From a virus (taxonomy: Duplodnaviria > Heunggongvirae > Uroviricota > Caudoviricetes): a stretch of DNA of 64,000 bases. The notes below the pieces were generated by a model. That model searched no databases. It worked only from the letters and a program-made list of their open reading frames with translations, and was not told where the DNA came from. The translations under genes were made by a program, and so were the position numbers. Numbering within the stretch: the first letter of the stretch is position 1; each line of letters begins with the position of its first letter. Positions 18,821-61,192 of this stretch are shown here, piece by piece. The stretch lies in the IMG/VR virus record IMGVR_UViG_3300021400_001778, positions 8,923-72,922 of that record; one strand, 5' to 3'.

Positions 18821-20143
18821 TCATTCTTCAAACTTATCTTTGAGTTTTAAATAAAGTTCGTATAATTCTTTTTCTCTGTCGCGCGACAAATTATTTTTAT
18901 AATCGTCAAGAACGGCTTTAGATGGTGTTGTAATAGCACTTAAACTTTCTTTTGTTGCATGGGTATATACATTTTCTGTATTAATCGCCCTGTGTCCTAC
19001 CATAAGTGCTGTACTAACTACATTCGCCCCTTTCGCATTATTAGCGATAGATATAGCTGTATGTCTTAAAGAGTTAATTGATAATCCTTTCATTCTCCCT
19101 GTTTTAGTTAAATGTACATCTCTATCAATCCCCATCTTATCGCAAACTAAATTAAAGCCAACGCGCATAGTTGCGTTACTTCTTCTTTTGCCGTTTCGGA
19201 ACGTGGGATAGAGTAAATCATCTGGATTATTCAGACAATGCAACTTAGTTTGTTCTTGCATATACTCAACACATTCTCGGCATAAATCGGACATAACAAC
19301 AAACCTACTTTCGCCGTTCTTCGGTACTTTCACATATTCTTCTATGCCGTTATTCTTCTCATTGTTTATGAATCTCGTTGAACGTGTTTCAACAATGTTA
19401 ATTATATTCTGTCTAAAGTCAATGTTACTATTTCGCAAAGATGCAAACTCGCTTTCTCGCATACCCGTTTCTAAAAGGAATAGTATTACAACTGGATACT
19501 CGCTAATATTTTTCTTATAAGCGTAATAGAATTTTTGTATGTCCTCGGCGGTAAATACTTCTTTGCGATTTTTTAATTCTTGTTCGCGTTTGTGGTCGTA
19601 TTCGTCTGCTACTTCTCGCGGTACTCTTGCAATTTTCGCGTAATTCTCATCTAACAAACTTCTGTTTACAAGGTATTCGCAACACCTTCTGCATAGTTGA
19701 ATAGGCAAAGAGCATGTTTTTCTTGATTTCTTTTCAAGGATTGAGTTGTAATAACTTTCAAATTCTGTCGATGTAAGCAAATGAAGCTGATAATTTGCAA
19801 TCGGGAATGGATAGAAATTAACCTTCATATTTGAGCAGTAAGTTTTATAACCACTTGCAGTTATATTCGGCTTAATCTCGTTATCTATAAACTCGCTCAT
19901 ATATTCGCCAAATGTTTTACCTTTTGGAATTTTCGCATCCTTTCCTTTCTCTATCTCTTTCTCCCAAGCACGTTTAGCCATTAGCGCGTTTTTCTGCGCT
20001 TCTTCCTTTGTGCTTCCCCTTCTTTTAATTCTTTTTGCATTACCTGTTTTGGGATTTGGATATTTCGCAACCATAACGCATTCATATTTACCGTCCGTTA
20101 ATTTTCTTACGCTACCCTCTCCGTTTTGTGCCTTATTTCTCAT
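18821..20143 (-). CDS. int: Tyrosine-type integrase (site-specific recombinase, 440 aa) with an N-terminal arm-binding domain
   Basis: C-terminal catalytic motifs ...LRHTAISIA...MVGHRAINTENVYTHAT (R...HxxR...Y); N-terminal AP2-like segment SVRKLTDGKYECVMV. Confidence 0.85.
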   Translation of the reverse strand: MRNKAQNGEGSVRKLTDGKYECVMVAKYPNPKTGNAKRIKRRGSTKEEAQKNALMAKRAWEKEIEKGKDAKIPKGKTFGEYMSEFIDNEIKPNITASGYKTYCSNMKVNFYPFPIANYQLHLLTSTEFESYYNSILEKKSRKTCSLPIQLCRRCCEYLVNRSLLDENYAKIARVPREVADEYDHKREQELKNRKEVFTAEDIQKFYYAYKKNISEYPVVILFLLETGMRESEFASLRNSNIDFRQNIINIVETRSTRFINNEKNNGIEEYVKVPKNGESRFVVMSDLCRECVEYMQEQTKLHCLNNPDDLLYPTFRNGKRRSNATMRVGFNLVCDKMGIDRDVHLTKTGRMKGLSINSLRHTAISIANNAKGANVVSTALMVGHRAINTENVYTHATKESLSAITTPSKAVLDDYKNNLSRDREKELYELYLKLKDKFEE

Positions 20144-20655: not shown

Positions 20656-21009
20656 TTATGCCTCCTTGCTCGGTATATCTACATAATCGCAAGGATTAGC
20701 GATAATATAATTGTCCAACACAGCGTCAATTAACATCTGGCTGAACAATGCTCTTATATCTTTTACATATCTCCTTGTGTATCCAATTCCTGTCTTACTT
20801 CGTTTATTTGGTGCTTCAAATAGTAAGTAATTATAAAAATCTTTGATATCTTCGCGAGTAACATCTTCTAAATTCTTACGCTTATCGCTAAAATAATTTC
20901 TGATTAATTTATATCTGTAATGGTATCCTTCTTGTGTTTTGCCGTTAATTATTTTATTTTTATTCTTAATCCAGTTATCACAGTATTTTGTAAATAAAAT
21001 ATTTTTCAA
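20656..21009 (-). CDS. Stand-alone integrase N-terminal SAM-like domain (truncated second integrase or remnant; no catalytic domain follows)
   Basis: ...REDIKDFYNYLLFEAPNKRSKTGIGYTRRYVKDIRALFSQMLIDAVLDNYIIANPCDYVDIP resembles the Phage_int_SAM N-terminal domain that normally ends in the ANP motif. Confidence 0.5.
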   Translation of the reverse strand: MKNILFTKYCDNWIKNKNKIINGKTQEGYHYRYKLIRNYFSDKRKNLEDVTREDIKDFYNYLLFEAPNKRSKTGIGYTRRYVKDIRALFSQMLIDAVLDNYIIANPCDYVDIPSKEA

Positions 21010-21026: not shown

Positions 21027-21812
21027 TTAGAATAATTTTTCGATATATTCTCGCCCTTCTTTCTTAAATGCGGGAATTTCTAAGTCAATATACCACTTGT
21101 CTCTTGCGAAAACGCTCTGTTCTAATGTCGGCGCAGTTTTGATAAGGGGAACTTTTTTCTTTATACAGCAACTACCCAAAAGATGATGCGATTCGTAATT
21201 AGACAGATAGTCGTTCTTTTCGTGGAGCATACCAATAACTTCATCTCTTGATTTGTTTTTTAATTGCTTATCAGAATAATGCGTCCTTGCAATCATATTT
21301 ACTGCATTCCTAAAAGCATCAGATTGCCGCCAGTAAAAATAATTCGTAACTTCTTCTTTAGGAATATTAAACGTTCGGCAATCAAATGTGACATATTTAT
21401 GGTCATAATATCGTTCAAAAAGTTCATCGAATTCATTTTCGTAATCTTCTACATTTGCTTCGTATCTATTCAAGAAAGCCGCAGTTGCCATACTTGCGAT
21501 AACGGAGCAAAGTTTCTGAACTCTATACCCGAAAAACGGTTCTGCTCTTTCATTTAAATAGTTCGCAAGAAGCAGAGATATTTCGTCCGACTGTGTATAT
21601 CCTAATACGCAACCTTGCACATTTTCACAAAGATACTGCATAGTATCGCGCATTGTTCTTGAAAGAACATCATCAAATGGCTTTTGAAAATTCTTTGTGA
21701 ATGTATGAAAACATCTGCCATCGACCCTAACAATGACTGGCTCGTATGGGTCGAGAGCGACATTAAACTGCCGCTCATAACCCTTCATTCTCTTATCAAA
21801 TTCTGTATACAT
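21027..21812 (-). CDS. Thg1-like protein (tRNA-His guanylyltransferase family 3'-5' nucleotidyltransferase)
   Basis: PYEPVIVRVDGRCFHTFTKNFQKPFDDV and LGYTQSDEISLLL match the Thg1 motifs VVRxDGRxFHxF...KPxD and GYGQSDEYSF; size 261 aa. Confidence 0.7.
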   Translation of the reverse strand: MYTEFDKRMKGYERQFNVALDPYEPVIVRVDGRCFHTFTKNFQKPFDDVLSRTMRDTMQYLCENVQGCVLGYTQSDEISLLLANYLNERAEPFFGYRVQKLCSVIASMATAAFLNRYEANVEDYENEFDELFERYYDHKYVTFDCRTFNIPKEEVTNYFYWRQSDAFRNAVNMIARTHYSDKQLKNKSRDEVIGMLHEKNDYLSNYESHHLLGSCCIKKKVPLIKTAPTLEQSVFARDKWYIDLEIPAFKKEGREYIEKLF

Positions 21813-22027
21813 TAAAAACTTCTCGCTTTCATAGAATTAAAATACTCTTCAAGATATTCCATTGCTTTATCGTCTTCTATGTAGAAAATGTCTACAATAC
21901 CTTTTTCTGAAAACACCCATCTTTTGAAGTTTTCAATTAATTGGCAAAATCGCCAATCTGGAACAAAATCTTTGTGATATTCTGCTAATGTCATATAAAA
22001 CGGTTTAATTCTTTCTGGATTTCTCAT
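21812..22027 (-). CDS. Hypothetical protein (71 aa)
   Basis: ORF whose stop is coupled (ATGA overlap) to the Thg1-like gene start. Confidence 0.3.
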   Translation of the reverse strand: MRNPERIKPFYMTLAEYHKDFVPDWRFCQLIENFKRWVFSEKGIVDIFYIEDDKAMEYLEEYFNSMKARSF

Positions 22028-22313: not shown

Positions 22314-22904
22314 TTAAAATTCTCGCGCTATATAATGTTTAAACTCTGAATATGTATTAAATTTGCTCCTAAAACTCGATTGAATATCTTCGAGATGCAA
22401 TCCGAATTTTTCTGTTACAAAATTAATATACTCAAAATCATATACCTTTTTTCTACGTTTATTTTTCTTTTTGATAATATCGAAAACTTCACTTTTAGGA
22501 ACTTTATATTCTGCGAAAAGATAATTAGCCATATCCCGCGAAGAATATTCTTCAAATTGACAAATGGGACAAAATTCTTCTGGCATTTCATAGCACCATT
22601 CTGATAGAATGTTTTCAATAAGTTCACCGTCACTCATCTCGGTAATCTCATCTTCCGAAAGTCTATAAAATTCACTCATTCTATAAACTTTCCTCATACT
22701 ATTGTTGATTTGAGTTATAAATTCTAACAACTTATCTCTCGATGGAATTAACATATGTTCATCACAAATAACGTGTCCATTCATACATTCAAACATATCC
22801 CCATCTCGTACTGAACAATCCCATCCTGATACTTCGTTGCCGCATATATCACACACATATGATGACGAACTTGAATTTGTTACAAAATCTTTTCTGTATT
22901 TCAT
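22314..22904 (-). CDS. Paralog family member 1 (MKYRKDFVTNSSSSSYV N-terminus; Cys-rich, Zn-binding-like C-terminal part)
   Basis: Shares the N-terminal ~16 aa with four neighbouring ORFs; the remainder is unrelated. Confidence 0.6.
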   Translation of the reverse strand: MKYRKDFVTNSSSSSYVCDICGNEVSGWDCSVRDGDMFECMNGHVICDEHMLIPSRDKLLEFITQINNSMRKVYRMSEFYRLSEDEITEMSDGELIENILSEWCYEMPEEFCPICQFEEYSSRDMANYLFAEYKVPKSEVFDIIKKKNKRRKKVYDFEYINFVTEKFGLHLEDIQSSFRSKFNTYSEFKHYIAREF

Positions 22905-22916
22905 TTTTACCTCCGC

Positions 22917-23396
22917 TTAATGATGACTAAAACGCTTGATAGTACAATCGAGATATGGCATAATATCATGCTCAAGGTCTCCGTCAGTGTGGTCACAATA
23001 TTCGACTTCTGCCAAATATTCACAATCATCAATTTTTTCTTTGAAACGCTTATATAACTCATCTATCTTTGAATTTACAGCATCATCAAATTCTTTTTTA
23101 TTTTCTTCCTTCTCAATCCATTTTTCAAAATTTGTATAACCACCCAATTTATCCTCGTAACTATCTTCTAAATAAAATTTCACATTCCATCGAACTTCAT
23201 CTTTAAATATTTCAAGCGCATATTCTTTTGTTATTCTGTGTTTTTTTATATCACGCAAAACTTCATCATATTTATAAATACTGTCACATTTAACCATTGA
23301 TTCTTTTAATTGTGAATCTATATCATTTTCGCTTTTAAAACCAACTATAAAACTACTTGAACTACTATTTGTTACGTAATCGCATCTTATTTTCAT
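22917..23396 (-). CDS. Paralog family member 2 (MKIRCDYVTNSSSSSFIV...)
   Basis: Conserved N-terminal motif; acidic, divergent C-terminus. Confidence 0.6.
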   Translation of the reverse strand: MKIRCDYVTNSSSSSFIVGFKSENDIDSQLKESMVKCDSIYKYDEVLRDIKKHRITKEYALEIFKDEVRWNVKFYLEDSYEDKLGGYTNFEKWIEKEENKKEFDDAVNSKIDELYKRFKEKIDDCEYLAEVEYCDHTDGDLEHDIMPYLDCTIKRFSHH

Positions 23397-23408
23397 AATA
23401 AATTCTCC

Positions 23409-23909
23409 TTATCCTACATCGTGTTGTATTAATAAGTGTTTGCGGCATGTCTGTTTTAAAAACCCGTTTCTTATAGCCCATTCAAGTAATCCACCATTTG
23501 TATCCCAAATTGTAGAAAACACAATCTTTTCAGAATTATCTATTTTGTTTATAGATTCAATATAATTATTATCGTTTTTTATTTTATCATCTATTAAATC
23601 TTTACACTCTTTAGATTTTAGATACACGAATAATTTGATTAATGATAAATTTTCAGTTTCATTTTTTATGTTGTTTTTTACTTCTTTTTCATATTTTGCA
23701 TAATATACATTATATAAAAACTCTTTCGCCCGTTTTTTCAATTCTTCTTGTGATGCTCTGTGTAATTGCGACTTAATAAATGTCAGTAATTCGTTATAGT
23801 CATACCAATCCATTTCTTCTACAAATTCTGCATAATCATCATTTGTGCTAAATGTTAAAATAAAACTACTTGAACTACTGTTTGTAACATAATCGTTTCT
23901 AATTTTCAT
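23409..23909 (-). CDS. Paralog family member 3 (MKIRNDYVTNSSSSSFIL...)
   Basis: Conserved N-terminal motif; divergent C-terminus. Confidence 0.6.
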   Translation of the reverse strand: MKIRNDYVTNSSSSSFILTFSTNDDYAEFVEEMDWYDYNELLTFIKSQLHRASQEELKKRAKEFLYNVYYAKYEKEVKNNIKNETENLSLIKLFVYLKSKECKDLIDDKIKNDNNYIESINKIDNSEKIVFSTIWDTNGGLLEWAIRNGFLKQTCRKHLLIQHDVG

Positions 23910-25730: not shown

Positions 25731-26033
25731 TTAATCACCGTTTATATAAAAAGCATTATTGTCGCATTCAACGAAAATAACATCTTTACCTCTACCATAA
25801 TGATTTCCCGCATAACATTCACCCATTATTTGATTATGAATATTTTTAAAGTATTCAATATTTAACTTAATGTATTCAATCGCGCCCTCTTTTGTTTCAA
25901 AATCCTGTTCTGTTTCCCAAAAGAACGCCCGTTGATTTGTTACAAAAAACGTGTCTATATCAGGACAAAAGGCTATAACATAAGTATCATGTTCTCTCAT
26001 TGCGTCATCTGGTATTTCTTCATAAATTATCAT
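25731..26033 (-). CDS. Hypothetical protein (100 aa)
   Basis: ORF whose start is coupled to the stop of the upstream gene. Confidence 0.3.
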   Translation of the reverse strand: MIIYEEIPDDAMREHDTYVIAFCPDIDTFFVTNQRAFFWETEQDFETKEGAIEYIKLNIEYFKNIHNQIMGECYAGNHYGRGKDVIFVECDNNAFYINGD

Positions 26034-28390
26034 TTATTTCTCCATATCACTAAATGTCTATCTACATTATTGCACAAAGTAATTTCATTCCTAATGGGAC
26101 ACCCGCCCATGCATTCATTTCTTCTTTTACAGTTTGGACATGAGTTTCTAAAAATATTTCTAAAGTTTTCAAAAACATTACTATCCCATGCGTTTTGAAT
26201 CGTATCATTAGAAATGTCATAAGCCCACTTCATATCCTGATTATCAAAGCTACAAGGTAACGCTTTCATATCAGAAGTAATATACATACTCCATCTTCCG
26301 CCCTCGCAAGTATCAAAGCTATCTGGATTTACTTTTGTAGTGTAATTAATAAGCGCGGGAACTGTGCAACTATCAAATCCAATCTTAAAATTGTGGTCTA
26401 CATTTTCGATAGCTTCAAAAAATCTCTTTACTCGCGGGTCATCTGTGTGTAATACTTTTTCCTGTGTACCTAATCCAACTGGCTTATAAAGCAGAAAAAT
26501 TACAGCGTTGATACCTTTCGGAAAATCATTATTCTCAATTCTTGTAATAGCTTCATCAATGGAATTATTACTAAGAACGTAATGAATATTTGTTTTAACT
26601 CCCGCATTTAGTAGTAAATTTACCGCTCTCTTTGTGTATGGTGCATGATGCTCGGATACAGCCACCGCTCCACAATATTTTTTACATAATTCAGCCTTTT
26701 CTTTTGTCATCATTATTCCACTTGTAGTAAAATTTGGAACAATATTGTATTTTTTACAAATTTTAAGTAAATCTTCAAAATTTTCATGGGTATCAACGTC
26801 ACCCGCCCCACCCATTGCGCAATTATGAGAAACAATAAAATGTGTTGTCACAAACAAGTGTTCTTTTGAATTTATATTTATATCAATAACTCTTCTTTTA
26901 CCGACATTTTTTATTGAATTTACAATGTATCCTTTTCTATGTCTCAAATAATTCTCATTATGTTCTACATTTATAATTGTATTTAAAAAATTGTCGTAAT
27001 CTATGTGTTCAGAAATTACTTTATAAATTTTTCTAATCTCTAATAAATTTGATATTATAATTCTATAGCGTTTCTTTCTATTTATAATCCTTTTATCATT
27101 TTTTGAAAATTCGAATTGTCCGCCATTTTCTGTATTTACGGAATAATCAACATTTATTTTTGATAAAAGCATTGTTAAATCTTTGAACAATTTTTCGCTT
27201 GAAGTATTAAAAATAATTTCGCCATAATTACCATCATGTGTTTTAATATCTATATTGCCATCGCAAAAATAACCTTCAAGAAAATACAAAATCATTTCAT
27301 CGCTTACGCTATATATGAAAATCGGTAACTGTTTTTCTCGATTAGGAGTTCTACATCCAAAAATATTGTCAAATAATTCTTCATGGAGCATGTTACTACT
27401 TAATTCAATTATACAAGCACCTTGCGAATATCTTGTTGTATATGAGAAATCATCAAAACAATTCTGTAGACATTTTTTTATTGAATCAATCATTTTTGTT
27501 TGTTTTTCATTTACAACATATCTCCTTCGCGAACCATTACCAATATAATGACCAAGTAATATCATAAAATCTTTCGTTATTGGATATATCGTTTTAAGCC
27601 TATAGGGAGAACGAGCTTTTGATATTTTTGCGTCTCTATAATTTATTTCCTCTAAATGATTTTTAATTTTTGATATTAATACAGTTTTATTCCTATTCCT
27701 TTTAATGTTATATTTATTGCATACTTCCATTAAACCTTCACAGTCTGATAAGAAAAAATAATCGTCTAATCCGCGGGAAATAATTAATTTAACAACATCA
27801 ACTTCATTGATTGATTGTATATTCTTTTTGTTTTTAGCAGTTACGAATTCGTCCCCTACTTTTAATTCTTCAACAGTTTTTAGACCATCCACTGTAAGAA
27901 ATTTATGTTCTTTTGTTGCTTTAATTGTTTTGCCGTATCCGATATTTATTTCATATACATCGTCATATTTTTCGCGTTTTTCATATACATCGTGAAAACC
28001 GTCTCCGCAATAAATATTATCTCCGACTCTAATATTTTTAATGTATACACTACTTATATAGTTACCAGATTTGCGTAAAACAACTTCATCTTCGTGTAAA
28101 CATTGAAACATTTTACCAGACGATTCTTTCATTATTTTTTCGAAGTTTTCGACGCTCATATTTTTGCCTTTGCGCTCTATTGCTTTTTGATAACAATCAA
28201 CATTACAATATTTTGCACAAACACACGTTTCCATAACCCCAACGTCAATAAGTTCTGGAAATGAAGACATAAATGGGTCTACGCCAGTATCAACACCATT
28301 CTCAATAATCCCTGTTCTCGCGTAAAATCCAGTTTCCGTATTAAAGGTTGAAATATATTTATATTTAGCATCGTGTTTAGTGATAATCAT
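26030..28390 (-). CDS. Radical-SAM/SPASM-like Fe-S enzyme (exteins ~359 aa) interrupted by a LAGLIDADG intein
   Basis: N-extein Cys cluster TCVCAKYCNVDC; C-terminal SPASM-like CPNCKRRNECMGGCPIRNEITLC (Cx2Cx5Cx3C); inserted 427-aa element begins CLHEDEVVL and ends FIVSHN followed by C. Confidence 0.55.
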   Translation of the reverse strand: MIITKHDAKYKYISTFNTETGFYARTGIIENGVDTGVDPFMSSFPELIDVGVMETCVCAKYCNVDCYQKAIERKGKNMSVENFEKIMKESSGKMFQCLHEDEVVLRKSGNYISSVYIKNIRVGDNIYCGDGFHDVYEKREKYDDVYEINIGYGKTIKATKEHKFLTVDGLKTVEELKVGDEFVTAKNKKNIQSINEVDVVKLIISRGLDDYFFLSDCEGLMEVCNKYNIKRNRNKTVLISKIKNHLEEINYRDAKISKARSPYRLKTIYPITKDFMILLGHYIGNGSRRRYVVNEKQTKMIDSIKKCLQNCFDDFSYTTRYSQGACIIELSSNMLHEELFDNIFGCRTPNREKQLPIFIYSVSDEMILYFLEGYFCDGNIDIKTHDGNYGEIIFNTSSEKLFKDLTMLLSKINVDYSVNTENGGQFEFSKNDKRIINRKKRYRIIISNLLEIRKIYKVISEHIDYDNFLNTIINVEHNENYLRHRKGYIVNSIKNVGKRRVIDININSKEHLFVTTHFIVSHNCAMGGAGDVDTHENFEDLLKICKKYNIVPNFTTSGIMMTKEKAELCKKYCGAVAVSEHHAPYTKRAVNLLLNAGVKTNIHYVLSNNSIDEAITRIENNDFPKGINAVIFLLYKPVGLGTQEKVLHTDDPRVKRFFEAIENVDHNFKIGFDSCTVPALINYTTKVNPDSFDTCEGGRWSMYITSDMKALPCSFDNQDMKWAYDISNDTIQNAWDSNVFENFRNIFRNSCPNCKRRNECMGGCPIRNEITLCNNVDRHLVIWRNK
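26822..28102 (-). mobile_element. Intein (~427 aa) with a LAGLIDADG homing-endonuclease domain inside the radical-SAM-like gene
   Basis: Intein block A CLHEDEVVL; LAGLIDADG-like MILLGHYIGNGS and LYFLEGYFCDGNI; terminal blocks ...KRRVIDININSKEHLFVTTHFIVSHN with +1 Cys. Confidence 0.6.
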
Positions 28391-32711: not shown

Positions 32712-33380
32712 TCATTTTACCTCTAATAAATGTGTAGCTTCCATATCAGCTTCATGTAAAGCTAACGCAAGCGGGAATTTCTCGAAAGCATTTCCTAACG
32801 AATTCCAGATATTTTGACTTTCATACGCGCCCATATGGAATCTGATTGCTACAGCTTCTTCGTCCGTAAGCGTGATATATTTATTTACAAGATATACGCT
32901 CTTATCGCCATGCCCGAACGGGAATTGTTCATCAGGTTTGTAATACGGTACTGTTTCCCATATAAAGTTACCGTTACTGTCTGACTTAATTTGCCAACGT
33001 GCGGCGGCGTTCACCTTATCTTCATCGTATGTTTTCTGGTTTCTATAATCCACTTTATAGAAATTTGCTTTACATACATCATGGAGTAAGGCGGCGAGAG
33101 CAAGTGATTCATCTGGCGTATCTCTCAAATATTTACTCCATAACTCATTCTTTTTCTTTTTCAAGATACAAGTGTAAACATTCAAGCTGTGAGCGACAAG
33201 TCCGCCCTCGTAATCACAGTGGAATCTTGATGACGCGGGTGCTGTGTAAAAATCAGTAGATTCAAGATACTTAATCAACTCTTCAATGCCATCGCGCTTA
33301 GTGTCTCGCAGAATCATATTAAATATTTCACTATTAGATAAATTTGATTCATTGAGAAGTGATTCATTGTTACCTTCCAT
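32712..33380 (-). CDS. HD-domain phosphohydrolase
   Basis: VAHSLNV...ALLHDVCK matches the H...HD metal-binding signature. Confidence 0.6.
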   Translation of the reverse strand: MEGNNESLLNESNLSNSEIFNMILRDTKRDGIEELIKYLESTDFYTAPASSRFHCDYEGGLVAHSLNVYTCILKKKKNELWSKYLRDTPDESLALAALLHDVCKANFYKVDYRNQKTYDEDKVNAAARWQIKSDSNGNFIWETVPYYKPDEQFPFGHGDKSVYLVNKYITLTDEEAVAIRFHMGAYESQNIWNSLGNAFEKFPLALALHEADMEATHLLEVK

Positions 33381-35253: not shown

Positions 35254-35898
35254 TTAAATGAAATCGCAAACCTTGATTTTTGTAATAATTCTGTTGTGCT
35301 GTCTGTCATAAAGGTCTATTATTGGCTTACCGACCACACCCTCCATTTCGTGATTCGGGTTAATAAGTGAACGAGGTTGAGTCTTGATAAATTCAATAGC
35401 ATCATTAATCGTTCCAATCATAACTAATGGCACGGTTTTAATGCCGAATGCCTTTGCGATATCTTGAATATCCTGATATTTAAGCCAAGTATCTGAACCA
35501 ACCATATACACATCGAACAAGATAAAATCACAGCCATCTGGAATATAATTACCGCCGCCTTTCTGAATTTTCGCGCCGTAACCTTCGCCAAACAGAACAA
35601 CTTCTTTCTCGCCAAACAGTTGTTCAAACATCTCTTCGGCTTCATTCGTACCGAAAATCTCAATCAATCTATTCGTAAGATGTGCGGGAATCTGCGCTCT
35701 CTCCGTTCTTCCCTGATAGTTTACTTTGTGTCCGTTCCAGTATATGCCCGTATTTGTTCCGTCCACTTTTTCACTAAAGAACCAGAGATTATTAGATAAA
35801 AATTTGACTGCATCGTTTCTATATTCTCCCTCAATAAGTTTCTTAGTGCCTTCAATATCTCTAACAAATGGTGTTTCAATTTTTGTGTAAGTATACAT
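35254..35898 (-). CDS. ATP-dependent RNA ligase (Rnl2-like nucleotidyltransferase domain)
   Basis: Motif I EKVDGTN (KxDGxN), motif IV FGEGYGAKIQ, motif V ILFDVY, C-terminal ...KIKV lysine motif. Confidence 0.65.
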   Translation of the reverse strand: MYTYTKIETPFVRDIEGTKKLIEGEYRNDAVKFLSNNLWFFSEKVDGTNTGIYWNGHKVNYQGRTERAQIPAHLTNRLIEIFGTNEAEEMFEQLFGEKEVVLFGEGYGAKIQKGGGNYIPDGCDFILFDVYMVGSDTWLKYQDIQDIAKAFGIKTVPLVMIGTINDAIEFIKTQPRSLINPNHEMEGVVGKPIIDLYDRQHNRIITKIKVCDFI

Positions 35899-38016: not shown

Positions 38017-39297
38017 TTATGCTGTTTGGATACTCGCGACTTTAGCCGTGAGAGGAAAACAACTTCTCCTTTCTATAAGATATCCATTAACATGTTCTAA
38101 TAATTTTAACTTCTTATAACTAATATTTCCTTTATTCACTTTATCTCCACTTAAATTTCTTATATCAAAATACCCAGTTTTTCTTCTTGCGAAGATAAAA
38201 TACTGTTTCCCTTGATACATTACTCTATCGTATAAATGAAACCCATGTATATCATAATCTGTCTGATTTCTTTTCTTTACGCCACCTTTGCAGATATTGA
38301 ATTTATGAATTTGGCGATTATGTCTTCTAACTTTCCTATAATAGTAAATACAATCATCGTCTTTTGCTAATGTATTTCCGCTAATACATCGCGCGTCTAT
38401 ATAATGTTCTTTCGGCAAACCATGAAGAATCCTACTGTTCTTTGTAATATATCCGAATGTCATAGATACATCTTTATATCTACTTTTTAATTCGTTGTAG
38501 AACGCCCATCGCATAATCCCCATAAACGTTGCGTCTCTAAAAGACATGCCACGTTTGATTGTATTAGGAAGTTTTACCGTCCCATTGTGATATCCTTTGT
38601 GGCAAGTTTCGCAAAGTGTAATTAAATTGTTTGGCGCATCACCACCCGTCTTTCTACTTTCGATATGATGAACATTTAAAATCTTATCTTTTGACTTACC
38701 TTTACAGCATTGGCAAGTGTGACCATCTCTGAACAATACATATTCACGCACGTTCCAAAATCCAAGCTGTTCACCCTCTTGATACATTTCGTTATGTATA
38801 TCAGGGTTTTTAATCTTCTGTATATCAAAAGACGCTGTTTCAACCACAATCTTTGATATAGGAAGAATATTATAAATCTTATCAACCACAGATAAATGCG
38901 TTTCAATTTTGTGTCTGATGCTTGGCGATAACCATTTCTCGCATCGCTTTCGGTTGTTGAAACGTGCTTTGCGATATCTTGTTTTGCGATTTCTTCGTTC
39001 TTTTCTTGCTCCGCGCCTTGTAGATAACTTCTCTACAATATCGTTTCGGAGTTCTACTTCCGATTCAAATAAAACTTGATTACTTGTAGTTGCTGATAAT
39101 CCTATAGTTTTACTTCCACTATCAACTCCAAGAGAGATATCTTGAATAACATTTCCAGTTTCGTATAATAATTGAATCGTGAACGGATTTTTATTAATTA
39201 CCTTTGCTTTATTGTCTCGCAAAAGTCTTCTTACTTTCCCAAAACGCTTCGTTGGCATTAAAGGTTTTCCGTCTCGATTTATCACATAAACAAACAT
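38017..39297 (-). CDS. iscB: IscB (OMEGA-system RNA-guided nuclease, IS200/IS605-associated ancestor of Cas9)
   Basis: N-terminal PLMP domain (INRDGKPLMPTKRFGKVRRLL), RuvC-I (ISLGVDSGSKTIG), Arg-rich bridge helix, HNH (CQCCKG...NVHHIESRKTGGDAPNNLITLCETCHKGYHN), RuvC-III (KEHYIDARC); 426 aa. Confidence 0.85.
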   Translation of the reverse strand: MFVYVINRDGKPLMPTKRFGKVRRLLRDNKAKVINKNPFTIQLLYETGNVIQDISLGVDSGSKTIGLSATTSNQVLFESEVELRNDIVEKLSTRRGARKERRNRKTRYRKARFNNRKRCEKWLSPSIRHKIETHLSVVDKIYNILPISKIVVETASFDIQKIKNPDIHNEMYQEGEQLGFWNVREYVLFRDGHTCQCCKGKSKDKILNVHHIESRKTGGDAPNNLITLCETCHKGYHNGTVKLPNTIKRGMSFRDATFMGIMRWAFYNELKSRYKDVSMTFGYITKNSRILHGLPKEHYIDARCISGNTLAKDDDCIYYYRKVRRHNRQIHKFNICKGGVKKRNQTDYDIHGFHLYDRVMYQGKQYFIFARRKTGYFDIRNLSGDKVNKGNISYKKLKLLEHVNGYLIERRSCFPLTAKVASIQTA

Positions 39298-39620
39298 AAT
39301 ACTCCTATGATATGTTTTGTTGTTGTAAACCAGTACATATCAACTGTAAGATAACCATCGTCAATGTTATGGAAAGGTTTACATATGCACAACACTGTTC
39401 CTACCCATTAGAACTGTTTAATCATGCGTCGTAGAGTTACAGACTTGGTTATACATCCGTAAGTACCTATACATTCTTTCCTAACGTAGTGTCCGAAACA
39501 CTTAGACTAATCAATAACGAACTTTCGCAAGTCCGTGACTTTAGTCATGGGTTATTGACGCTCTTTCCACTATTTCAAGAGCATCACTTAATATTGAATT
39601 TACCATAAATATGCCTCCTA
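39298..39620 (-). ncRNA. Candidate omega-RNA (HEARO-type) for IscB: ORF-free, higher-GC region immediately 5' of iscB
   Basis: About 320 nt with no ORF and many inverted repeats, in the position expected for an IscB omega-RNA; a promoter lies just upstream at 39627-39655. Confidence 0.5.
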
Positions 39621-52176: not shown

Positions 52177-52326
52177 TTCTTATAATCTCCTTTCATTTTT
52201 ACTATTCGCGCAGTCAAACAATCCCTAAAATCCTATCATTCAACTGCGCTTTGCATTTACAGATTGGTTATTTTGCCTACTTAGACCTTTCACGGATTCG
52301 CACCGCACCTCTTCTCACCAGACCTC

Positions 52327-52354
52327 AACCACCGAGCGGGAATCGAACCCGCCT
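52327..52354 (-). other. Orphan tRNA 3'-half-like fragment (T-arm plus acceptor 3' strand) without a matching 5' half
   Basis: Reverse complement reads GCGGGTTCGATTCCCGCTCGGTGG; no complementary acceptor strand can be found within tRNA distance. Confidence 0.3.
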
Positions 52355-52358
52355 TAAT

Positions 52359-52430
52359 TGTGAGTTCGGGACTCGAACCCGAAACCTACCGCTTATAAGG
52401 CGGGTGCGCTCACCAGTTGCGCTAACTCAC
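52359..52430 (-). tRNA. tRNA, anticodon read as UAU (Ile); possibly a different identity if the anticodon stem is mis-drawn
   Basis: Reverse complement GTGAGTTAGCGCAACTGGTGAGCGCACCCGCCTTATAAGCGGTAGGTTTCGGGTTCGAGTCCCGAACTCACA; 7-bp acceptor, TCGGG/CCCGA T-stem, GTTCGAG T-loop; anticodon loop CTTATAA. Confidence 0.45.
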
Positions 52431-52439
52431 ATTATTTAA

Positions 52440-53474: not shown

Positions 53475-53543
53475 TTGGAGTGGCGGGATTCGAACCCGCA
53501 CTCCGTTGTACAAACGTACTCTTCCACTAAGCTACACTCCGAA
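53475..53543 (-). tRNA. tRNA-like gene of atypical length (~68 nt) with canonical D- and T-arms and a C1:A72 mismatch; anticodon uncertain (GUA, Tyr-like, if a 3-bp anticodon stem is assumed)
   Basis: Reverse complement CGGAGTGTAGCTTAGTGGAAGAGTACGTTTGTACAACGGAGTGCGGGTTCGAATCCCGCCACTCCAA; T-arm GCGGG-TTCGAAT-CCCGC. Confidence 0.35.
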
Positions 53544-53544
53544 C

Positions 53545-54230
53545 TGGCGACCCCTTGTACTTCGGTGGTACTTTAATGCTCATTAACACACCAGTTTTAT
53601 GTACGTTCGATTTGGTTACGGCTACTCTCGACAAAGTAACTATTGCGCACTGGTCACTTCCGTACAAAATACACTTACAAGCTACCGAAAGCCCGCCCCT
53701 TTGCCTTTACTCTTATTACGCTACGTGAGGGTTTTAAGTGCCACTTGTCGCCAAGCACAACCTGTCGTTTTACGCGCATATGCGGTATATTTCACTTGTA
53801 AGATGGCAGAAAAGAGATATTTATCAGCTAATATCACTTTATACGCTACCTATTTTCTCCTTATAACCACCCCCAACACACCATTCGCTGATAAATACGT
53901 GATTATAAGGTAAAAAATTCTTACGCATCTGCCTATTGTTCTGATAAGGATTTGCACCTTACATGCAAGAGTTTTTAAACCACGCGTGCTAACTATTGTA
54001 TGCATCCAATCCCTTGCACAGCACGCTTTACGTCTACCTATTCCGCCACAGAACATGTTATTTTGTCTCCACAAAGGTTACAAACCTAAGAATCGAAATC
54101 ACGCTTTCGCTTCTCATTTTGAACGGGTTCGCGCGACCCGCCCGCGCCGATTTTAAGTTATATTATATCGGGAACTTAGGCAGTCTAAAGGAAACTTACC
54201 ATCCCTCTGCTGTTTGAGTATACAGCATAA
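53545..54230 (-). ncRNA. About 690-nt ORF-free, GC-enriched region flanked by tRNAs and downstream of a strong promoter: candidate large structured ncRNA (ROOL/GOLLD-like); strand assumed from co-orientation with the tRNAs
   Basis: No ORF of 60 aa or more apart from two short overlapping ones on both strands; GC-rich helices such as cgggttcgcgcgacccgcccgcgccg; ROOL and GOLLD RNAs are typically found next to tRNAs in phages. Confidence 0.45.
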
Positions 54231-55064: not shown

Positions 55065-55877
55065 TTAATCTGTTTGTATTTTCATAACCAATTCTCTGTT
55101 AAACCACGGCATCATATCTTCTAATTGGCTCTGTATTTCTTCTACGCATTCTTTAAGTTCTGGATGTGCCGTTCCGTTCATATTTCGCTCTCTATAAACG
55201 TGTGCCCATTCTGTAAGGTTGATTTTAAAAATAAACGCACTCGGTATGCTTTCCATATACAATCCGCGCTTTACATCGCGCTTGTCTTTTAAATCTTCTC
55301 TGATGTAGCCATTAACCGCTTTGAGAAATGTTTCGCTATCAACTGTAATCATTTCTGGAAGTTCTATGTTAAGTTGTTCACATGCAACATCTGTCGGAAT
55401 AATTTTATCTTTGTAATAATCTGACATTTCGCCAGACGAAAAATCTCCTAATCTTGTACTCGCGCGAATGATTCTGTTATCCATTCTTTTTGCATGACTG
55501 TCTAAGTCATCCTGACCGCCGCGATGTAACCCATCAACTGTAACAGATAAATCAATAAAGCGTAGCATTGTTGCATGTCTTGTGCCCCACTTGCATAACT
55601 TATTCATATAGTCTACGAATTTATCATTATTATTACCGTACATATCATAACTACCATCTAAATGTGTAGAATCAAAAACGACATTTCTTATCGTCTCTTC
55701 CTTTTCTCTTGTCCATGAACGCTTGGAAAAATACATCGTGGTTATAGCATCGTCAATACCTGTAATTTTATTTAAATATACCTTCACTCTTTCAACCCAC
55801 TTTCTATAATATTTATCTGACAATTTCTCATTGTTGTAATCGCCGCATCGTGATTCTCTTTGGTAGTACCCGCGCAT
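55065..55877 (-). CDS. thyX: Flavin-dependent thymidylate synthase (ThyX)-like
   Basis: C-terminal EWAHVYRERNMNGTAHPELKECVEEIQ resembles the ThyX signature W.HF..LR...HAQ.EIR; 270 aa. Confidence 0.5.
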   Translation of the reverse strand: MRGYYQRESRCGDYNNEKLSDKYYRKWVERVKVYLNKITGIDDAITTMYFSKRSWTREKEETIRNVVFDSTHLDGSYDMYGNNNDKFVDYMNKLCKWGTRHATMLRFIDLSVTVDGLHRGGQDDLDSHAKRMDNRIIRASTRLGDFSSGEMSDYYKDKIIPTDVACEQLNIELPEMITVDSETFLKAVNGYIREDLKDKRDVKRGLYMESIPSAFIFKINLTEWAHVYRERNMNGTAHPELKECVEEIQSQLEDMMPWFNRELVMKIQTD

Positions 55878-56314
55878 AAATCTTCTACTACGTAAATCTC
55901 ATTTTCTGGATAATGTGCTTTGAGTAGTAACGCATTTGAAACAACACAAATATCCGTACATACTCCGCAAAAATACACATCATTTTTCTCGTATCTAAGA
56001 TATGAAATCAGCGACAGACAAGCAAACTGATTCTTTAAGAATCGAATACCTTTTGATTCTAATATACCTTTCACTTCTCCCGTTAATTCGCTACCTACTG
56101 TGCCAACAATACAATGCTTGACTGGTAGTTTACGCCCTTCCTGCGTATTTAAATATTCATTGTCTAAATGGATATCGCATGTATAGAATATATCGCCGTT
56201 AAAATTTTTAATATATTCCGCAACCTTCGGCGCGATTCTTTTTGCTTCTGGTGTACCCAAAACGCCGCCAACAAAATCATTTTGCATATCAACAACAACT
56301 AATACTTTTTTCAT
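55784..56314 (-). CDS. Isochorismatase-family cysteine hydrolase (nicotinamidase/PncA-like); start taken at MKKVLVVVDMQNDF
   Basis: VLVVVDMQNDF; Cys in CGVCTDICV; ctcct ribosome-binding site upstream of 56314. Confidence 0.55.
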   Translation of the reverse strand: MKKVLVVVDMQNDFVGGVLGTPEAKRIAPKVAEYIKNFNGDIFYTCDIHLDNEYLNTQEGRKLPVKHCIVGTVGSELTGEVKGILESKGIRFLKNQFACLSLISYLRYEKNDVYFCGVCTDICVVSNALLLKAHYPENEIYVVEDLCAGTTKENHDAAITTMRNCQINIIESGLKE

Positions 56315-56894
56315 AGAACTCCTTATTAATACTCTCGATATTTTTATGTGGCAAACTTGCCATTTCTTCAACAATTCTATCTATTTCGTAATCGTGCATA
56401 AAGAATCTATACGTTATATCTGCCAAAAATAACTTTGTGTTATTATCATCGTATATAACTTCATACATTCTTTGATTTGTATTACGACTATTAAGCCCGC
56501 CGCAAGATTCTATATAATTCCCAATCTTAATATAGTCGAGGCAAGCCGTGTCGTAAAATACACTAAACACTTTTGTGCTTCTACTACCGCTATATATACA
56601 AACTTTGTAGCCGCGCTTCTTAACTCTTTTGCATAAATCATATAATTCGTTTAAATTTTGGTCGCCACCCATAAAACATACACAAGTTATGAGCGAATTA
56701 TATTTATCTATAAGTTTGTCTAAGTCGTCGGAAATATAATTACCAGTGTACTCCCAAAGATATTGGGAGTGGCAACCCTTACATCTGTAAGGGCAACCAC
56801 TAATATTAATAGCAAGCGATATCTCGTCAGGGACTTCTTCGCAAACTACAGCATAACTAACATATTTAAGTTTCTGTCGTTTCTGCATCACCAC
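56289..56894 (-). CDS. nrdG: Anaerobic ribonucleotide reductase activating protein (radical SAM)
   Basis: CPYRCKGC (Cx3Cx2C) near the N-terminus; adjacent to nrdD. Confidence 0.7.
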   Translation of the reverse strand: MVMQKRQKLKYVSYAVVCEEVPDEISLAINISGCPYRCKGCHSQYLWEYTGNYISDDLDKLIDKYNSLITCVCFMGGDQNLNELYDLCKRVKKRGYKVCIYSGSRSTKVFSVFYDTACLDYIKIGNYIESCGGLNSRNTNQRMYEVIYDDNNTKLFLADITYRFFMHDYEIDRIVEEMASLPHKNIESINKEFYEKSISCC

Positions 56895-57560: not shown

Positions 57561-59738
57561 TTATGCCGCTAAATGCCCACGTAGTTTAGGCACGTACTCA
57601 GTATTAAACATATAATGCTCAGTTTTTGCCGCTTTATTCTCTTCGTAAATTGGTTTTAAGCAACGTGTACAGTATTCGAAATACTCTTCGTTTGGCGAGA
57701 TATCAATACCTAAGAATTCCGCGCCCTCGACAAGTCCGTTAATACCAACTGTCAAGAATTGCTTATCCATATTGATGAATCCCGCGTCATAAATCGGAAG
57801 CATCTTTGCTTTCAAGAAATCACGCAGATTATCATCATAAGCGATTTGATACTTGTGTACTAATCTCACCTGTTCTCTGATTTTGCTGTCTAAATAGTTA
57901 TAAAACTCTTCTTTATCTCTCCACTCCTTATACTTATATGCGTCTTGCACAAGTCGATTGAAGTTAATTGTGATAACACTCTTGCTACCTGTTGATACGC
58001 CGCCCGCTCCGAGAGTATACGAGAATGTATTGTCTTGTAGTTCGTTGCGCAAACGACAGTTGTAATTATGGATACCATTCGCGAGAGTAAACATATCATC
58101 AGTCTTATCATCCATTTCAAAACAGTACACTTCATCATCGTAATCATATTTTTCTATGGATTTGATTCTGAAATAATATTTACCATTATCACAGATATTA
58201 TCTTCTGATTCTTCTAATTCGTTCGAGTTATATCTACTCAAGCAGTAGAATTTTAAACCATCTTTTTCAAAAGTATATCTGCGCGTTATACACCCATCAA
58301 TAGTACATATAGCATCTAAACTATCCGTAAATCTTTCGCATAAGCTACTATACACATTCGTATCTGAGAATACACCGTCTAATAATCCTCGTCTGAATTC
58401 GTTATCTATAAACGCCCACCTTAAATTAACTTCTAATAAACGATGATTCCGTATTAACGCTCCGTAATTATGACCCATTCTGTATAAATCCAAATCATTA
58501 TCATCGAGGAATGTGTCATAAGGTGTCGAATTAACCATTAAATAATCATTGGTTGTAAGGTCTTTTGTTAATTTCATACCACCGAAAACATTATTTCTAT
58601 GGTTGTCGGTTGCTATCATCTCCTTGTTATTTGTTAAAGTAACCTTATACATCTGTCTATTCGGTAATTTAACAAGTTTACCTTTACACCAACGTCCATT
58701 ATTGAATATCTCGTATCCATTATCATCAAATTTCATTGACTCAATATCTTCAAATTTTACTCTATAAACACTTTTTGAGTCTTTAATTAAAACATAGGTA
58801 TCTTTTGAGTAACAACATGAAGCTAACGAATCAACTGAATTACTGCGGTACATAAAGAACGAATGTCCTTTAGCCCACATTTCAGCAACAAAATCGGCAA
58901 ATTCTTTATCTACATAATCAACTCCATCATCTAAAAGATTTACTGTTTCAACAGGGAAAGTGAGAATTGTTCTCAGACGTTCTCTATTGAACCAATTCAT
59001 AAACTTTTTCTGTAACCACAGCACTGATTCATACTGTGGTTCTGTGCCATCGGGGAATACAAAATCCTCGAAGATACTTTCAAAGTACGGTCTGTCAAAA
59101 TAAGCGATATTCCAAAATACGCTCTGGTAGTTTCTCGCCGCCGCAGGTTGATTTAAACTGTAAACAACTTCTTGAAAGCACTGACTAATTACACTGTCAA
59201 TATCTCTGCGTCTTTTTGACAAATCAACAACTTCATTGCTTCTTAAATAATAGTCATCTCCGTATTCTTTGCGGATAAAGTAATCCATATAAGTTAAAAA
59301 CTCAGGTGTACTTACCGCGCCCGCAAACTGCGATGCAACAGCAAAAACAAGATTCACAAATGACCCGCAAAATGACTGTAAATTCTTCGGCGGTTCTGAA
59401 ATACCGCCAATATTTTTCATCCCTTTAAATAAATACGGATACATTGTAATGCTAACGCAGTACGGATAAATACTTGTTTCATCATGTTTATAGATTTGAT
59501 GTTTATCTAACTGCTCAATGTATTTTTCTGCTACTGCTTCGCCAAATAATTCTTTCTGTTTGTCGTACATCATTGTACGGTTAATTCCAATCATTAATTT
59601 TTTTGGAATCTCACCAGTTAAGGTTGTAATATTTTTGTTTTCTACATTAGCGTTCGAATCTACCGCACTACCAGTTGCGGCGTTCGATGCTCTCGTATAC
59701 TTCTTAATGAATTTTATTTCGCTATCATATCTCTTCAA
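57561..59738 (-). CDS. nrdD: NrdD N-terminal exon (725-aa ORF) containing an approximately 250-aa intein
   Basis: ...RLRNELQDNTFSYTLGAGGVSTGSKSVITINFNRL... is typical of class III RNR; the segment between SLASC and CRLRNEL is an insertion. Confidence 0.7.
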   Translation of the reverse strand: MKRYDSEIKFIKKYTRASNAATGSAVDSNANVENKNITTLTGEIPKKLMIGINRTMMYDKQKELFGEAVAEKYIEQLDKHQIYKHDETSIYPYCVSITMYPYLFKGMKNIGGISEPPKNLQSFCGSFVNLVFAVASQFAGAVSTPEFLTYMDYFIRKEYGDDYYLRSNEVVDLSKRRRDIDSVISQCFQEVVYSLNQPAAARNYQSVFWNIAYFDRPYFESIFEDFVFPDGTEPQYESVLWLQKKFMNWFNRERLRTILTFPVETVNLLDDGVDYVDKEFADFVAEMWAKGHSFFMYRSNSVDSLASCCYSKDTYVLIKDSKSVYRVKFEDIESMKFDDNGYEIFNNGRWCKGKLVKLPNRQMYKVTLTNNKEMIATDNHRNNVFGGMKLTKDLTTNDYLMVNSTPYDTFLDDNDLDLYRMGHNYGALIRNHRLLEVNLRWAFIDNEFRRGLLDGVFSDTNVYSSLCERFTDSLDAICTIDGCITRRYTFEKDGLKFYCLSRYNSNELEESEDNICDNGKYYFRIKSIEKYDYDDEVYCFEMDDKTDDMFTLANGIHNYNCRLRNELQDNTFSYTLGAGGVSTGSKSVITINFNRLVQDAYKYKEWRDKEEFYNYLDSKIREQVRLVHKYQIAYDDNLRDFLKAKMLPIYDAGFINMDKQFLTVGINGLVEGAEFLGIDISPNEEYFEYCTRCLKPIYEENKAAKTEHYMFNTEYVPKLRGHLAA
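58059..58814 (-). mobile_element. Intein in NrdD (about residues 309-560), with a degenerate LAGLIDADG-like region
   Basis: Begins CYSKDTYVLIKD (block A-like), has TDNH (block B-like TxxH), ends ...VYCFEMDDKTDDMFTLANGIHNYN followed by Cys; RRGLLDGVFSD is LAGLIDADG-like. Confidence 0.5.
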
Positions 59739-60433: not shown

Positions 60434-61192
60434 TTACACTATTCTTACTATTTTTTCATATAAAATATTAAATTTGCCAAATATTTGTTTCTCGCAATGA
60501 TAATGACCGCAATACCATTTGTTAAATTTTAAACCGTTGATTAGTAGTAAATCATTGAAATATTGTGTTAAGTAATCTCCGTCCATACATCCTATGCAAA
60601 CAGAAACGTCTTGTGGAAGACAATGTGTTATAACATAATCCACTTCGTAATTAACGTCTTCAAGCGATTGTATACCGCGCTTCATTTCTTCCTCTGATGG
60701 AAGTTCTTCTTCCCACCACGAAACGCCTTTAACACGGAACATTTTATTATGTTTTCGCCACGAATTATAAACTCTTTTAAATTCTTCTTTGGTTTCAAAT
60801 TCATTTGGGTCTAAAATTCCATCTTGAATATCATGCGAACTTGCGCCACCGAACGCGAAAAACTTTTTACCGACAAGATTGAAAACATATCCGCGCATCA
60901 GGTGATAAATATTATCAGCTATCTTGTGCGCTTTCCCGCCGCAAAAATCTACAACAGGGAATGTATATAACATGTTGAAACATTCGTGATTACCATCGAC
61001 AAATAATGTCGTAAACGGCTTATCATTTAGCCAATCAAGCCAGTATTTTTCTTCTTTTGAGTTAGACCAAATTCCACTAAAATCGCCTAATATAATAACA
61101 AAATCATTTCTTGTCATTTCTTTTTGCTCTGGAAATTTTGAAGTAGAAAATCTCCTAAAATCCCCGTGGCAATCTCCTGTAATGTATACCAT
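60434..61192 (-). CDS. Calcineurin-like metallophosphoesterase
   Basis: YITGDCHGDF, VIILGDFSG and VDGNHE motifs. Confidence 0.65.
   Translation of the reverse strand: MVYITGDCHGDFRRFSTSKFPEQKEMTRNDFVIILGDFSGIWSNSKEEKYWLDWLNDKPFTTLFVDGNHECFNMLYTFPVVDFCGGKAHKIADNIYHLMRGYVFNLVGKKFFAFGGASSHDIQDGILDPNEFETKEEFKRVYNSWRKHNKMFRVKGVSWWEEELPSEEEMKRGIQSLEDVNYEVDYVITHCLPQDVSVCIGCMDGDYLTQYFNDLLLINGLKFNKWYCGHYHCEKQIFGKFNILYEKIVRIV

Follow-up and report, generated by a model that had tools for sequence, protein, structure and literature searches.

The TLP Gene and Its Product

The stretch of DNA analyzed here, termed the window throughout, comprises 64,000 nucleotides of a virus of the Caudoviricetes (positions 8,923 to 72,922 of the IMG/VR record IMGVR_UViG_3300021400_001778) and encodes a protein of the Thg1 family, whose members add nucleotides to RNA in the 3'-5' direction. 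Its phage context is supported by a holin, peptidoglycan-binding lysis genes, an integrase, and a syntenic IMG/VR viral contig (L003). The gene in question is:

21027-21812, minus strand: Thg1-like protein (TLP) gene, 261 amino acids, ATG start

A first-pass annotation of the sequence had pointed to Thg1 catalytic-core motifs, and both of them, VIVRVDGRCFHTFTKNFQKPFDD and LGYTQSDEISLLL, are indeed present in the translation of this open reading frame (ORF). The protein matches the Pfam family PF04446 (Thg1) with E = 2.3e-32 and 112.1 bits (cutoff 29.2), covering profile positions 2-130 of 130, and PHROG 4717 ("tRNA-His guanylyltransferase") with E = 3.9e-74 across the whole protein; the NCBIfam scan gave no match. 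When compared with PDB sequences by phmmer, the best match is the bacterial enzyme BtTLP (4kgk, E = 7e-43, residues 7-259), followed by an archaeal TLP (5axk, E = 1.3e-14) and human Thg1 (E = 1.3e-8), with Candida and yeast Thg1 at E = 1e-8 or worse.

The conserved carboxylates D29, D76, and E77 of hTHG1 correspond to D30, D75, and E76 of BtTLP (PMC3701042). In the phage TLP the counterparts are D31, D76, and E77, none of which varies in alignments of 27 and of 121 homologues. Also present are the Lys, Ser, and Asn residues of the activation step (K44, S75, and N169), the Glu/Arg network (E13, R29, and R146), and the Lys of the transfer step (K100). In the same two alignments the invariance of E13, R29, S75, K100, R146, and N169 is complete and K44 is conserved in at least 90%; the residues equivalent to E12, R28, D30, S74, D75, and E76 of BtTLP (PMC3701042), together with the Lys and Asn of the activation step, are invariant or nearly so. 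The first-pass annotation had named a missing profile match or missing catalytic Asp/Glu residues as grounds for giving up the Thg1 assignment, and neither applies. The PF04446 match and the intact carboxylates leave hardly any doubt that the phage protein belongs to the Thg1/TLP family, and by its homology to BtTLP it is very probably a biochemically active enzyme.

Structural comparison leads in the same direction. The AlphaFold model has a pLDDT (predicted local distance difference test score) of 82.4 and a pTM (predicted template modeling score) of 0.84, and the top 32 Foldseek matches in the PDB are all Thg1 or TLP structures, the best one being 4kgm with E = 1.8e-21 and a template modeling (TM) score of 0.84-0.86 normalized to the target; for 4kgm and 4kgk together, TM scores, again normalized to the target, are 0.82-0.86. 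The model has the Thg1 fold, with an RRM-like palm and a C-terminal domain. BtTLP ranks first, the archaeal TLP second, and eukaryotic Thg1 third. Significant PDB neighbors are exclusively Thg1/TLP structures, and Cas10 complexes appear as weak matches (E about 0.01).

Type of Enzyme and Predicted Activity

In eukaryotic Thg1 the His residue of the eukaryote-specific HINNLYN motif stacks on the anticodon base G36 (PMC6471195). This motif is absent from the phage TLP, which reads AFRNAVNM where human Thg1 reads CHINNLYN, the motif His being replaced by Phe167. From its sequence, then, the phage protein is to be classed as a TLP of the bacterial type and not as Thg1 proper. Lacking HINNLYN, it is expected neither to select tRNA-His via the anticodon nor to add an untemplated G opposite A73.

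For BtTLP, 5'-truncated tRNAs are preferred 5-160-fold over G-1 addition, and activity extends beyond tRNA-His (PMC3061083). The best explanation of the gene, to which we would give somewhat better than an even chance, seems to be that it encodes an active TLP of the bacterial type which, like BtTLP, would refill 5'-truncated tRNAs by templated 3'-5' addition during infection. Such a palm-domain enzyme with two metal ions would activate an RNA 5'-monophosphate with ATP or GTP, or take a 5'-triphosphate directly, and would then extend the RNA in the 3'-5' direction, the 3' strand of the tRNA acceptor stem serving as template through Watson-Crick pairing. Its substrates in infected cells would be 5'-truncated tRNAs, either of the host or encoded by the phage, and the TLP might be one member of an accessory set of phage genes for RNA maintenance and counter-defense. 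We infer the tRNA substrate and the counter-defense purpose; whether a role in tRNA repair or counter-defense applies is, in our judgment, about an even call.

tRNA Genes and the Question of G-1 Addition

The tRNAs attributed to this phage by the first-pass annotation are real. Three were found, in addition to one degenerate tRNA-like element:

52358-52431, minus strand: tRNA-Ile(UAU), ARAGORN and Rfam, 68 bits
52440-52512, minus strand: tRNA-Gln(UUG), ARAGORN and Rfam, 59.6 bits
54231-54314, minus strand: tRNA-Leu(UAA), ARAGORN and Rfam, 60 bits

It had been proposed to check whether the phage tRNAs need G-1 or 5' repair, and the outcome speaks for neither need: the acceptor stems of all three are fully paired, and a tRNA-His gene was not found in the 64-kb window by ARAGORN or Rfam.

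An alternative function would be that of a true tRNA-His maturation enzyme, adding G-1 opposite C73 for histidylation of a phage or host tRNA-His. The label "tRNA-His guanylyltransferase", which most of the 164 phage homologues discussed below carry, would suggest as much, and TLPs can add a templated G-1 opposite C73 (PMC3061083), but, as stated, the window lacks a tRNA-His, though one may lie elsewhere in the phage genome, and such a gene lies within 10 kb of the TLP gene in only 4 of 80 viral loci. Three of these four phage tRNA-His genes already encode G-1 opposite C73, the exception being that of L070, which has U at -1 together with C73 and would therefore need post-transcriptional G-1 addition. 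Considering also that the TLP is devoid of HINNLYN and that the kinetic preference of BtTLP is for truncated tRNAs, whatever their identity, we regard this function as unlikely; G-1 addition is possible in some phages and is not supported as a general role of TLPs. The four tRNA-His genes are located at 4261-4335 in L005, 3858-3932 in L008, 4239-4312 in L046, and 19189-19261 in L070. Those of L005, L008, and L046 encode G-1, C73, and CCA and have U-U mismatches at 4:69 and 5:68 of the acceptor stem.

Phage tRNAs as substrates of 5'-editing of the mitochondrial type were also considered and rejected, since the tRNAs of the window are paired and a mismatch at acceptor pairs 1-3 occurs in only 4 of 98 tRNAs in TLP loci, two of the four being initiator-like.

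In five viral loci (L005, L008, L035, L046, and L057) the TLP gene follows directly after a tRNA array. Of 17 TLP-linked viral loci that have any tRNA within 10 kb, 16 encode tRNA-Gln(UUG), as does the window; it is the tRNA that most consistently co-occurs with TLP genes.

The degenerate tRNA-like element, 65-67 nucleotides in length, is situated within 53475-53699 (minus strand; Rfam tRNA, 46 bits). With relaxed settings ARAGORN reads it as tRNA-Tyr(GUA) with short D and anticodon stems, one acceptor mismatch, and no long variable arm. A "tmRNA" called by ARAGORN at 53476-53699 (minus strand) was not accepted, as its 30-residue tag is implausible ("Tag not identified") and Rfam gives it no support. 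About 700 nucleotides around the degenerate element (53540-54230) are free of ORFs and contain T-arm-like pieces. Directly after tRNA-Ile, at about 52325-52357 (minus strand), the sequence GGCGGGTTCGATTCCCGCTCGGTGG resembles a tRNA 3' half (T-arm plus acceptor 3' strand) and may be a tRNA remnant or an attachment-site relic.

Candidate Repair Partners in the Window

An RNA ligase, an HD phosphohydrolase, and a metallophosphoesterase had been cited as companions of the TLP in the first-pass annotation, and family searches bear out each of them:

35254-35898, minus strand: RNA ligase-family nucleotidyltransferase, 214 amino acids, PF09414 (E = 5.5e-20)
32712-33380, minus strand: HD-superfamily metal-dependent phosphohydrolase, 222 amino acids, PHROG 28876 (E = 4.8e-40)
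60434-61192, minus strand: calcineurin-like metallophosphoesterase (MPE), 252 amino acids, PF00149 (E = 5e-8) and PHROG 1649 (E = 3e-37)

The ligase also matches PHROG 548 ("RNA ligase", E = 2.4e-21), has motif I as EKVDGTN with KxDG present, and is conserved in the syntenic relative L003; a phmmer search against the PDB yielded no solved relative. It is a candidate repair partner of the TLP, a link which we infer. The HD protein scores 20.6 bits against Pfam HD, just under the cutoff of 22, and might tentatively be considered a candidate end-healing enzyme. That it is a DatZ-like dATPase, given the PurA/PurZ-like gene nearby, was an idea not used further, no PDB sequence match having been obtained and the PurA-like protein matching ordinary PurA entries.

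Searched against the PDB, the MPE family profile finds Dbr1, an enzyme that debranches RNA lariats, as its best match (E = 7e-6, core motifs alone), and it matches SbcD at E about 0.2. The MPE model has a pLDDT of 94, and its nearest folds are distant (TM 0.4-0.5), including a subunit of the intron-lariat spliceosome, PptH, and Mre11/SbcD. Judged from profile and model, the MPE looks more like a nucleic-acid phosphodiesterase than like a protein phosphatase. Together with a nearby ABC-like ATPase it could have represented an SbcCD/Mre11-Rad50 nuclease; this reading was rejected in view of E about 0.2 for SbcD versus 7e-6 for Dbr1, and is countered as well by the generic PHROG label "metallo-phosphoesterase" and the TM score of about 0.4 to Mre11/SbcD. 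The sole genuine Walker-A protein in the window is this ABC-type ATPase (61849-62469). Neither RlaP, the RNA-ligase-associated Pol-beta nucleotidyltransferase of PF10127, nor a second ligase family was found in the window.

Gene Neighborhoods of Phage TLPs

For comparison, 80 viral and 80 genome loci with TLP genes, plus a few more from contig look-ups, had their ORFs called and clustered and were dereplicated to 109 TLP lineages at 80% identity. The resulting counts describe metagenomic loci of common ancestry and, having been obtained without a background set, are not to be read as enrichment; unless stated otherwise, they refer to genes within 3 kb and on the same strand.

No neighbor is common to all 109 lineages. 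The commonest one is the MPE family to which the window protein belongs, encountered in 20 of the 109 lineages and, if the whole fetched flank is considered, in 29. In several loci it directly adjoins the TLP gene, with gaps of -19, +37, +102, and +275 nucleotides. As the other neighbors vary and these TLPs are mutually only 43-61% identical, it can be argued that TLP and MPE form a selected gene pair. Among cultured phages the MPE family is limited to 11 records, which include no cultured phage with a TLP, and because of this near absence the MPE cannot be an obligate partner of TLPs.

Other recurring neighbors are a second phosphoesterase (PHROG 547) and RlaP (seven lineages each), an RNA ligase family with a PHA02142 OB domain and PF09414 (six lineages), the HD family of the window type (four lineages), and a CCA-adding enzyme (three lineages). 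In an earlier, viral-only analysis, 6 of 41 lineages had a second ligase family, PHROG 968, at a distance of up to 10 kb; PHROG 968 also bore out the reading of a cluster (c15), Rnl2-like by eye and with no Pfam match, as an RNA ligase. These neighborhoods support a context of RNA-end maintenance for phage TLPs in general and lend some indirect backing to the inclusion of the MPE among possible repair enzymes.

Genes connected with NAD and ADP-ribose also recur near TLP genes, i.e., those for NadE, isochorismatase (nicotinamidase-like), a PRPP (phosphoribosyl pyrophosphate)-synthase-like protein, NADAR, PARG, and a weak Macro match. They bear on a further alternative, according to which the TLP would act on something other than tRNA, whether by 5' extension of small RNAs or transcripts, by cap-like adenylylation or guanylylation, or in nucleotide-signal chemistry. 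Relatives of the Thg1 palm domain include the GGDEF and CRISPR polymerases (PMC2904730), Cas10 complexes are weak structural matches, the first Thg1 step yields a 5'-App-RNA intermediate, and gut-phage TLPs are found amid NadE, PncA-like, NADAR, PARG, and Macro-like genes besides those for RNA repair. However, every characterized member of the family works on tRNA or tRNA-like 5' ends, the residues that bind the nucleoside triphosphate (NTP) for nucleotidyl transfer are conserved with BtTLP along with the full C-terminal domain, and no direct hint of another substrate has emerged, so that this alternative appears quite improbable.

The TLPs of gut phages (loci L004-L168, e.g., L019, L074, L158, L114, and L010) are encoded in accessory islands rich in genes for NAD salvage and ADP-ribose processing, including a NAMPT-like gene and a microbial PARG, which suggests that they share a counter-defense island. 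The window itself contains an isochorismatase-family gene at 55784-56374.

Position of the TLP Gene in the Window

The TLP gene stands distally, at the end of a long leftward array of closely packed genes; it is probably expressed as the last enzyme gene of this early/metabolic operon and adjoins the integrase module. Immediately upstream lies a small ORF:

21812-22027, minus strand: ORF of 71 amino acids, no Pfam or PHROG match

Its stop codon overlaps the start of the TLP gene (TAATG), and the two are therefore probably translationally coupled; homologues of this ORF are located directly upstream of the TLP gene in L003, L019, L020, and L152. On the 3' side of the TLP gene follow a 117-residue integrase-fragment ORF, an ORF of 64 residues, and a tyrosine integrase (18821-20143). 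In L003 the TLP, 61% identical to that of the window, occupies the same slot beside the integrase. Promoter and terminator scans performed no better than on shuffled sequence.

The fragment ORF (20656-21009, minus strand), between the TLP gene and the full integrase, resembles phage integrases in their N-terminal SAM-like domain alone (PF13102; PHROG 1). It is absent from L003 and probably represents either a mosaic junction or what is left of a second integrase. Just upstream of the TLP gene, at 22314-23909 (minus strand), three tandem paralogues of 196, 159, and 166 amino acids share the N-terminal motif MK(I/Y)RxD(Y/F)VTNSSSSS(F/Y); they have homologues in L003, no significant Pfam match, one sub-threshold zinc-finger match, and a weak match to PHROG 7397.

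The notion that the TLP gene is a passenger, i.e., a mobile accessory gene of no important role at a mosaic junction beside the integrase, deserves very little credence. Its place at the operon end, by the integrase and the fragment ORF missing from L003, and the lack of a tightly conserved partner across lineages (20 of 109 at best) would suit a passenger. Against this, the window and L003 have kept both the gene and its position despite an identity of only 61%, implying purifying selection, and 65 alignment columns including the whole active site are invariant among homologues whose identity to the query is 46-64%, with one further variant at 97%. Retention of the gene in 164 genomes of phages and in more than 575 contigs of IMG/VR is counted as a sign of selection.

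A Proposed Role in RNA Repair

Participation of Thg1 homologues in tRNA repair was proposed by Anantharaman, Iyer, and Aravind in 2010, based on bacterial gene neighborhoods that include polynucleotide kinase, RNA ligase, and Macro domains (PMC2904730). Iyer et al. (2021) count Thg1 as one of the jumbo-phage RNA-repair enzymes that restore 5' nucleotides (PMC7824862). Since both papers place Thg1 in RNA repair, the interpretation of the window genes as a tRNA end-repair toolkit, put forward in the first-pass annotation, is a published hypothesis. The part of it that stands is that the genes are real and that the same families recur near other TLPs; what does not fit is that in the window they lie 11-39 kb from the TLP gene and that a kinase and a tRNA-His gene are missing there. 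The toolkit reading is thus partly supported, and a distributed tRNA end-repair toolkit in this phage is at most plausible.

The refilling of truncated tRNAs in infection by an active TLP has to be weighed against a number of observations. The TLP gene of the window adjoins no RNA-repair gene, its neighbors being unannotated small ORFs and the integrase module. The HD, ligase, and MPE genes are 11, 14, and 39 kb away, and between them and the TLP gene are genes for an adenylosuccinate-synthetase-like protein, SPFH, a DNA methylase, IscB, dUTPase, ThyX, NrdD/NrdG, and others. A polynucleotide kinase-like P-loop protein was not found in the window. As their acceptor stems are fully paired, the phage tRNAs need no obvious 5' repair. 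The neighborhood statistics are drawn from metagenomic loci with common ancestry and without background control. We know of no host defense that specifically removes tRNA 5' nucleotides, and the damage that the TLP would repair is hypothetical. Finally, a literature search for experimental work on any phage TLP found none, and a 2019 review of the Thg1 family does not mention phages or viruses, in agreement with the earlier remark that phage Thg1-like genes are poorly characterized.

A more far-reaching idea, which we consider speculative and rather doubtful, is that the TLP of gut phages and the MPE family of about 250 amino acids constitute a conserved two-enzyme module acting on RNA 5' ends. 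The task of the MPE in such a module would be the trimming or deprotection of 5' ends that are damaged or blocked, or else the processing of a 5'-triphosphate or App intermediate; the TLP would then refill the 5' end against the 3' strand. The module would correspond, on the phage side, to the 5'-editing of mitochondrial tRNAs and would be directed at a host defense that attacks tRNA 5' ends, one not known to have been described. The window carries both genes, unlinked. The TLP-MPE pair of uncultured gut phages could be a lead beyond accessible catalogued knowledge.

The 3'-5' polymerases are an oddity of biochemistry whose roles in bacteria and phages are as yet hypothetical. If phage TLPs repair tRNA 5' ends, this would imply that there are host defenses or stresses which damage tRNA 5' ends. 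With hundreds of genomes and thousands of metagenomic sequences phage TLPs are numerous, and any one of them would be a reasonable entry point.

Distribution of TLPs in Phages and Databases

Of 50,697 phage records in GenBank searched with tblastn, 164 contain a TLP homologue, in most cases already annotated as "tRNA-His guanylyltransferase". They come from phages of Bacillus, Fusobacterium, Caulobacter, Mycobacterium, and Prevotella (Lak megaphages), with many jumbo phages among them. In IMG/VR, more than 575 viral contigs carry a relative, and at least 8000 protein database entries match the TLP at E <= 1e-10. An identical protein is encoded on human-associated metagenome contigs. The collection of species-representative genomes contains more than 574 matches, the best ones in assemblies of gut Clostridia; the closest is 64% identical and belongs to a metagenome-assembled genome of Ruminococcus, followed by Blautia, Lachnospiraceae, and Clostridium. 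Homologues on contigs of 200-277 kb, which were expected to be bacterial, look as if they come from large phages. As the family is common and routinely annotated in phages, the TLP of the window is a real but ordinary find.

Other Features of the Window

At 38017-39559 (minus strand) an IscB-like protein is encoded (RRXRR domain PF14239, E = 3e-64, plus HNH). A HEARO/omega-RNA at 39346-39559 (Rfam RF02033, 131.7 bits) has the IscB-like gene immediately downstream, and the two make 38017-39559 a phage-borne locus for an RNA-guided nuclease of the OMEGA type.

The segment 28393-31113 (minus strand) includes an adenylosuccinate-synthetase-like gene (PF00709) whose match to PHROG 1211, "2-aminooxy adenylosuccinate synthetase", is a PurZ-type label; a PDB search with its product returned ordinary PurA entries only. 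Its two conserved partners are a PHROG 2971 protein and an unannotated protein of 212 amino acids, and this trio accompanies the TLP in 14 viral loci. The trio might be a sign of modified-purine DNA.

Two genes contain inteins. The first (26030-28390, minus strand) encodes a protein of 786 amino acids with an intein, a LAGLIDADG domain, and a weak match to SPASM; the second (57561-59738, minus strand) is that of the anaerobic ribonucleotide reductase NrdD, likewise split by an intein. An I-HmuI-like homing endonuclease is encoded at 61205-61801, between the ABC-like ATPase and the MPE.

Comparison With Known Systems

Among characterized enzymes, BtTLP (4KGK/4KGM; Rao et al., 2011; Hyde et al., 2013) is the one which the phage TLP resembles most. 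Homology is collinear over the full length (E = 7e-43), identity in the structural alignment is 33-36%, and the fold is the same. Both are single-domain proteins of about 250 amino acids without HINNLYN and with identical catalytic carboxylates and NTP-binding residues. In contrast to BtTLP, the phage TLP has a helical insertion of about 14 residues, roughly at positions 113-140, is encoded by a phage and not by a bacterium, and is known from its sequence and a model. The window TLP also differs from bacterial TLPs in having no adjacent polynucleotide kinase, which is their most persistent partner (Anantharaman et al., 2010). Eukaryotic Thg1 proteins (human 3OTB, yeast, and Candida 3WBZ) have the superfamily, the fold, and the two-metal active site in common with the phage TLP. 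However, they are distant from it (E = 1e-8, about 20% identity), and they are true tRNA-His G-1 guanylyltransferases possessing the HINNLYN motif that the phage enzyme lacks.

The concept of phage enzymes restoring nuclease-damaged tRNAs is known from the heal-and-seal system of T4, in which tRNA repair by Pnkp and Rnl1 counters the PrrC anticodon nuclease. With respect to such a system, the window possesses an RNA ligase gene, whereas a kinase is absent and the genes are linked only in other phages. Its ligase is a minimal PF09414 protein of 214 residues and not Rnl1. Candidates for a 3'-phosphatase or 2',3'-cyclic phosphodiesterase would be the HD protein (32712-33380) and the MPE (60434-61192), the latter only distantly resembling Dbr1/Mre11/SbcD. 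Furthermore, the T4 system mends breaks in the anticodon loop, whereas a TLP restores missing 5' nucleotides, and the genes of the window are spread over 40 kb.

In mitochondrial 5'-editing by DdiTLP3 of Dictyostelium, a TLP refills the tRNA 5' end after a separate removal activity, a scheme into which the TLP-phosphodiesterase pair of gut phages would fit, although the encoded 5' mismatches that define editing substrates are rare among the tRNAs of TLP loci (4 of 98).

Finally, the phages with PHROG 4717 genes, such as Fusobacterium phage Fnu1, the Bacillus phages FADO, Bcp1, and G, the CbK-like phages of Caulobacter, and the Lak phages, carry members of the same family. Their copies are 36-41% identical to the window TLP in phages of Fusobacterium, Bacillus, and Staphylococcus and about 30% in the most distant records; the phages encode tRNAs, their genomes are mostly larger than 100 kb, and the gene is already annotated in GenBank. 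The window TLP adds no new principle, and its value is that of a clean, apparently active example and of a pointer to the recurrent TLP-MPE linkage in gut phages. Unlike the PHROG 4717 copies just named, it belongs to an uncultured phage lineage of gut Clostridia and to a phage carrying an integrase, and in this broader gut clade the TLP is often linked to an MPE family that is almost absent from cultured phages.

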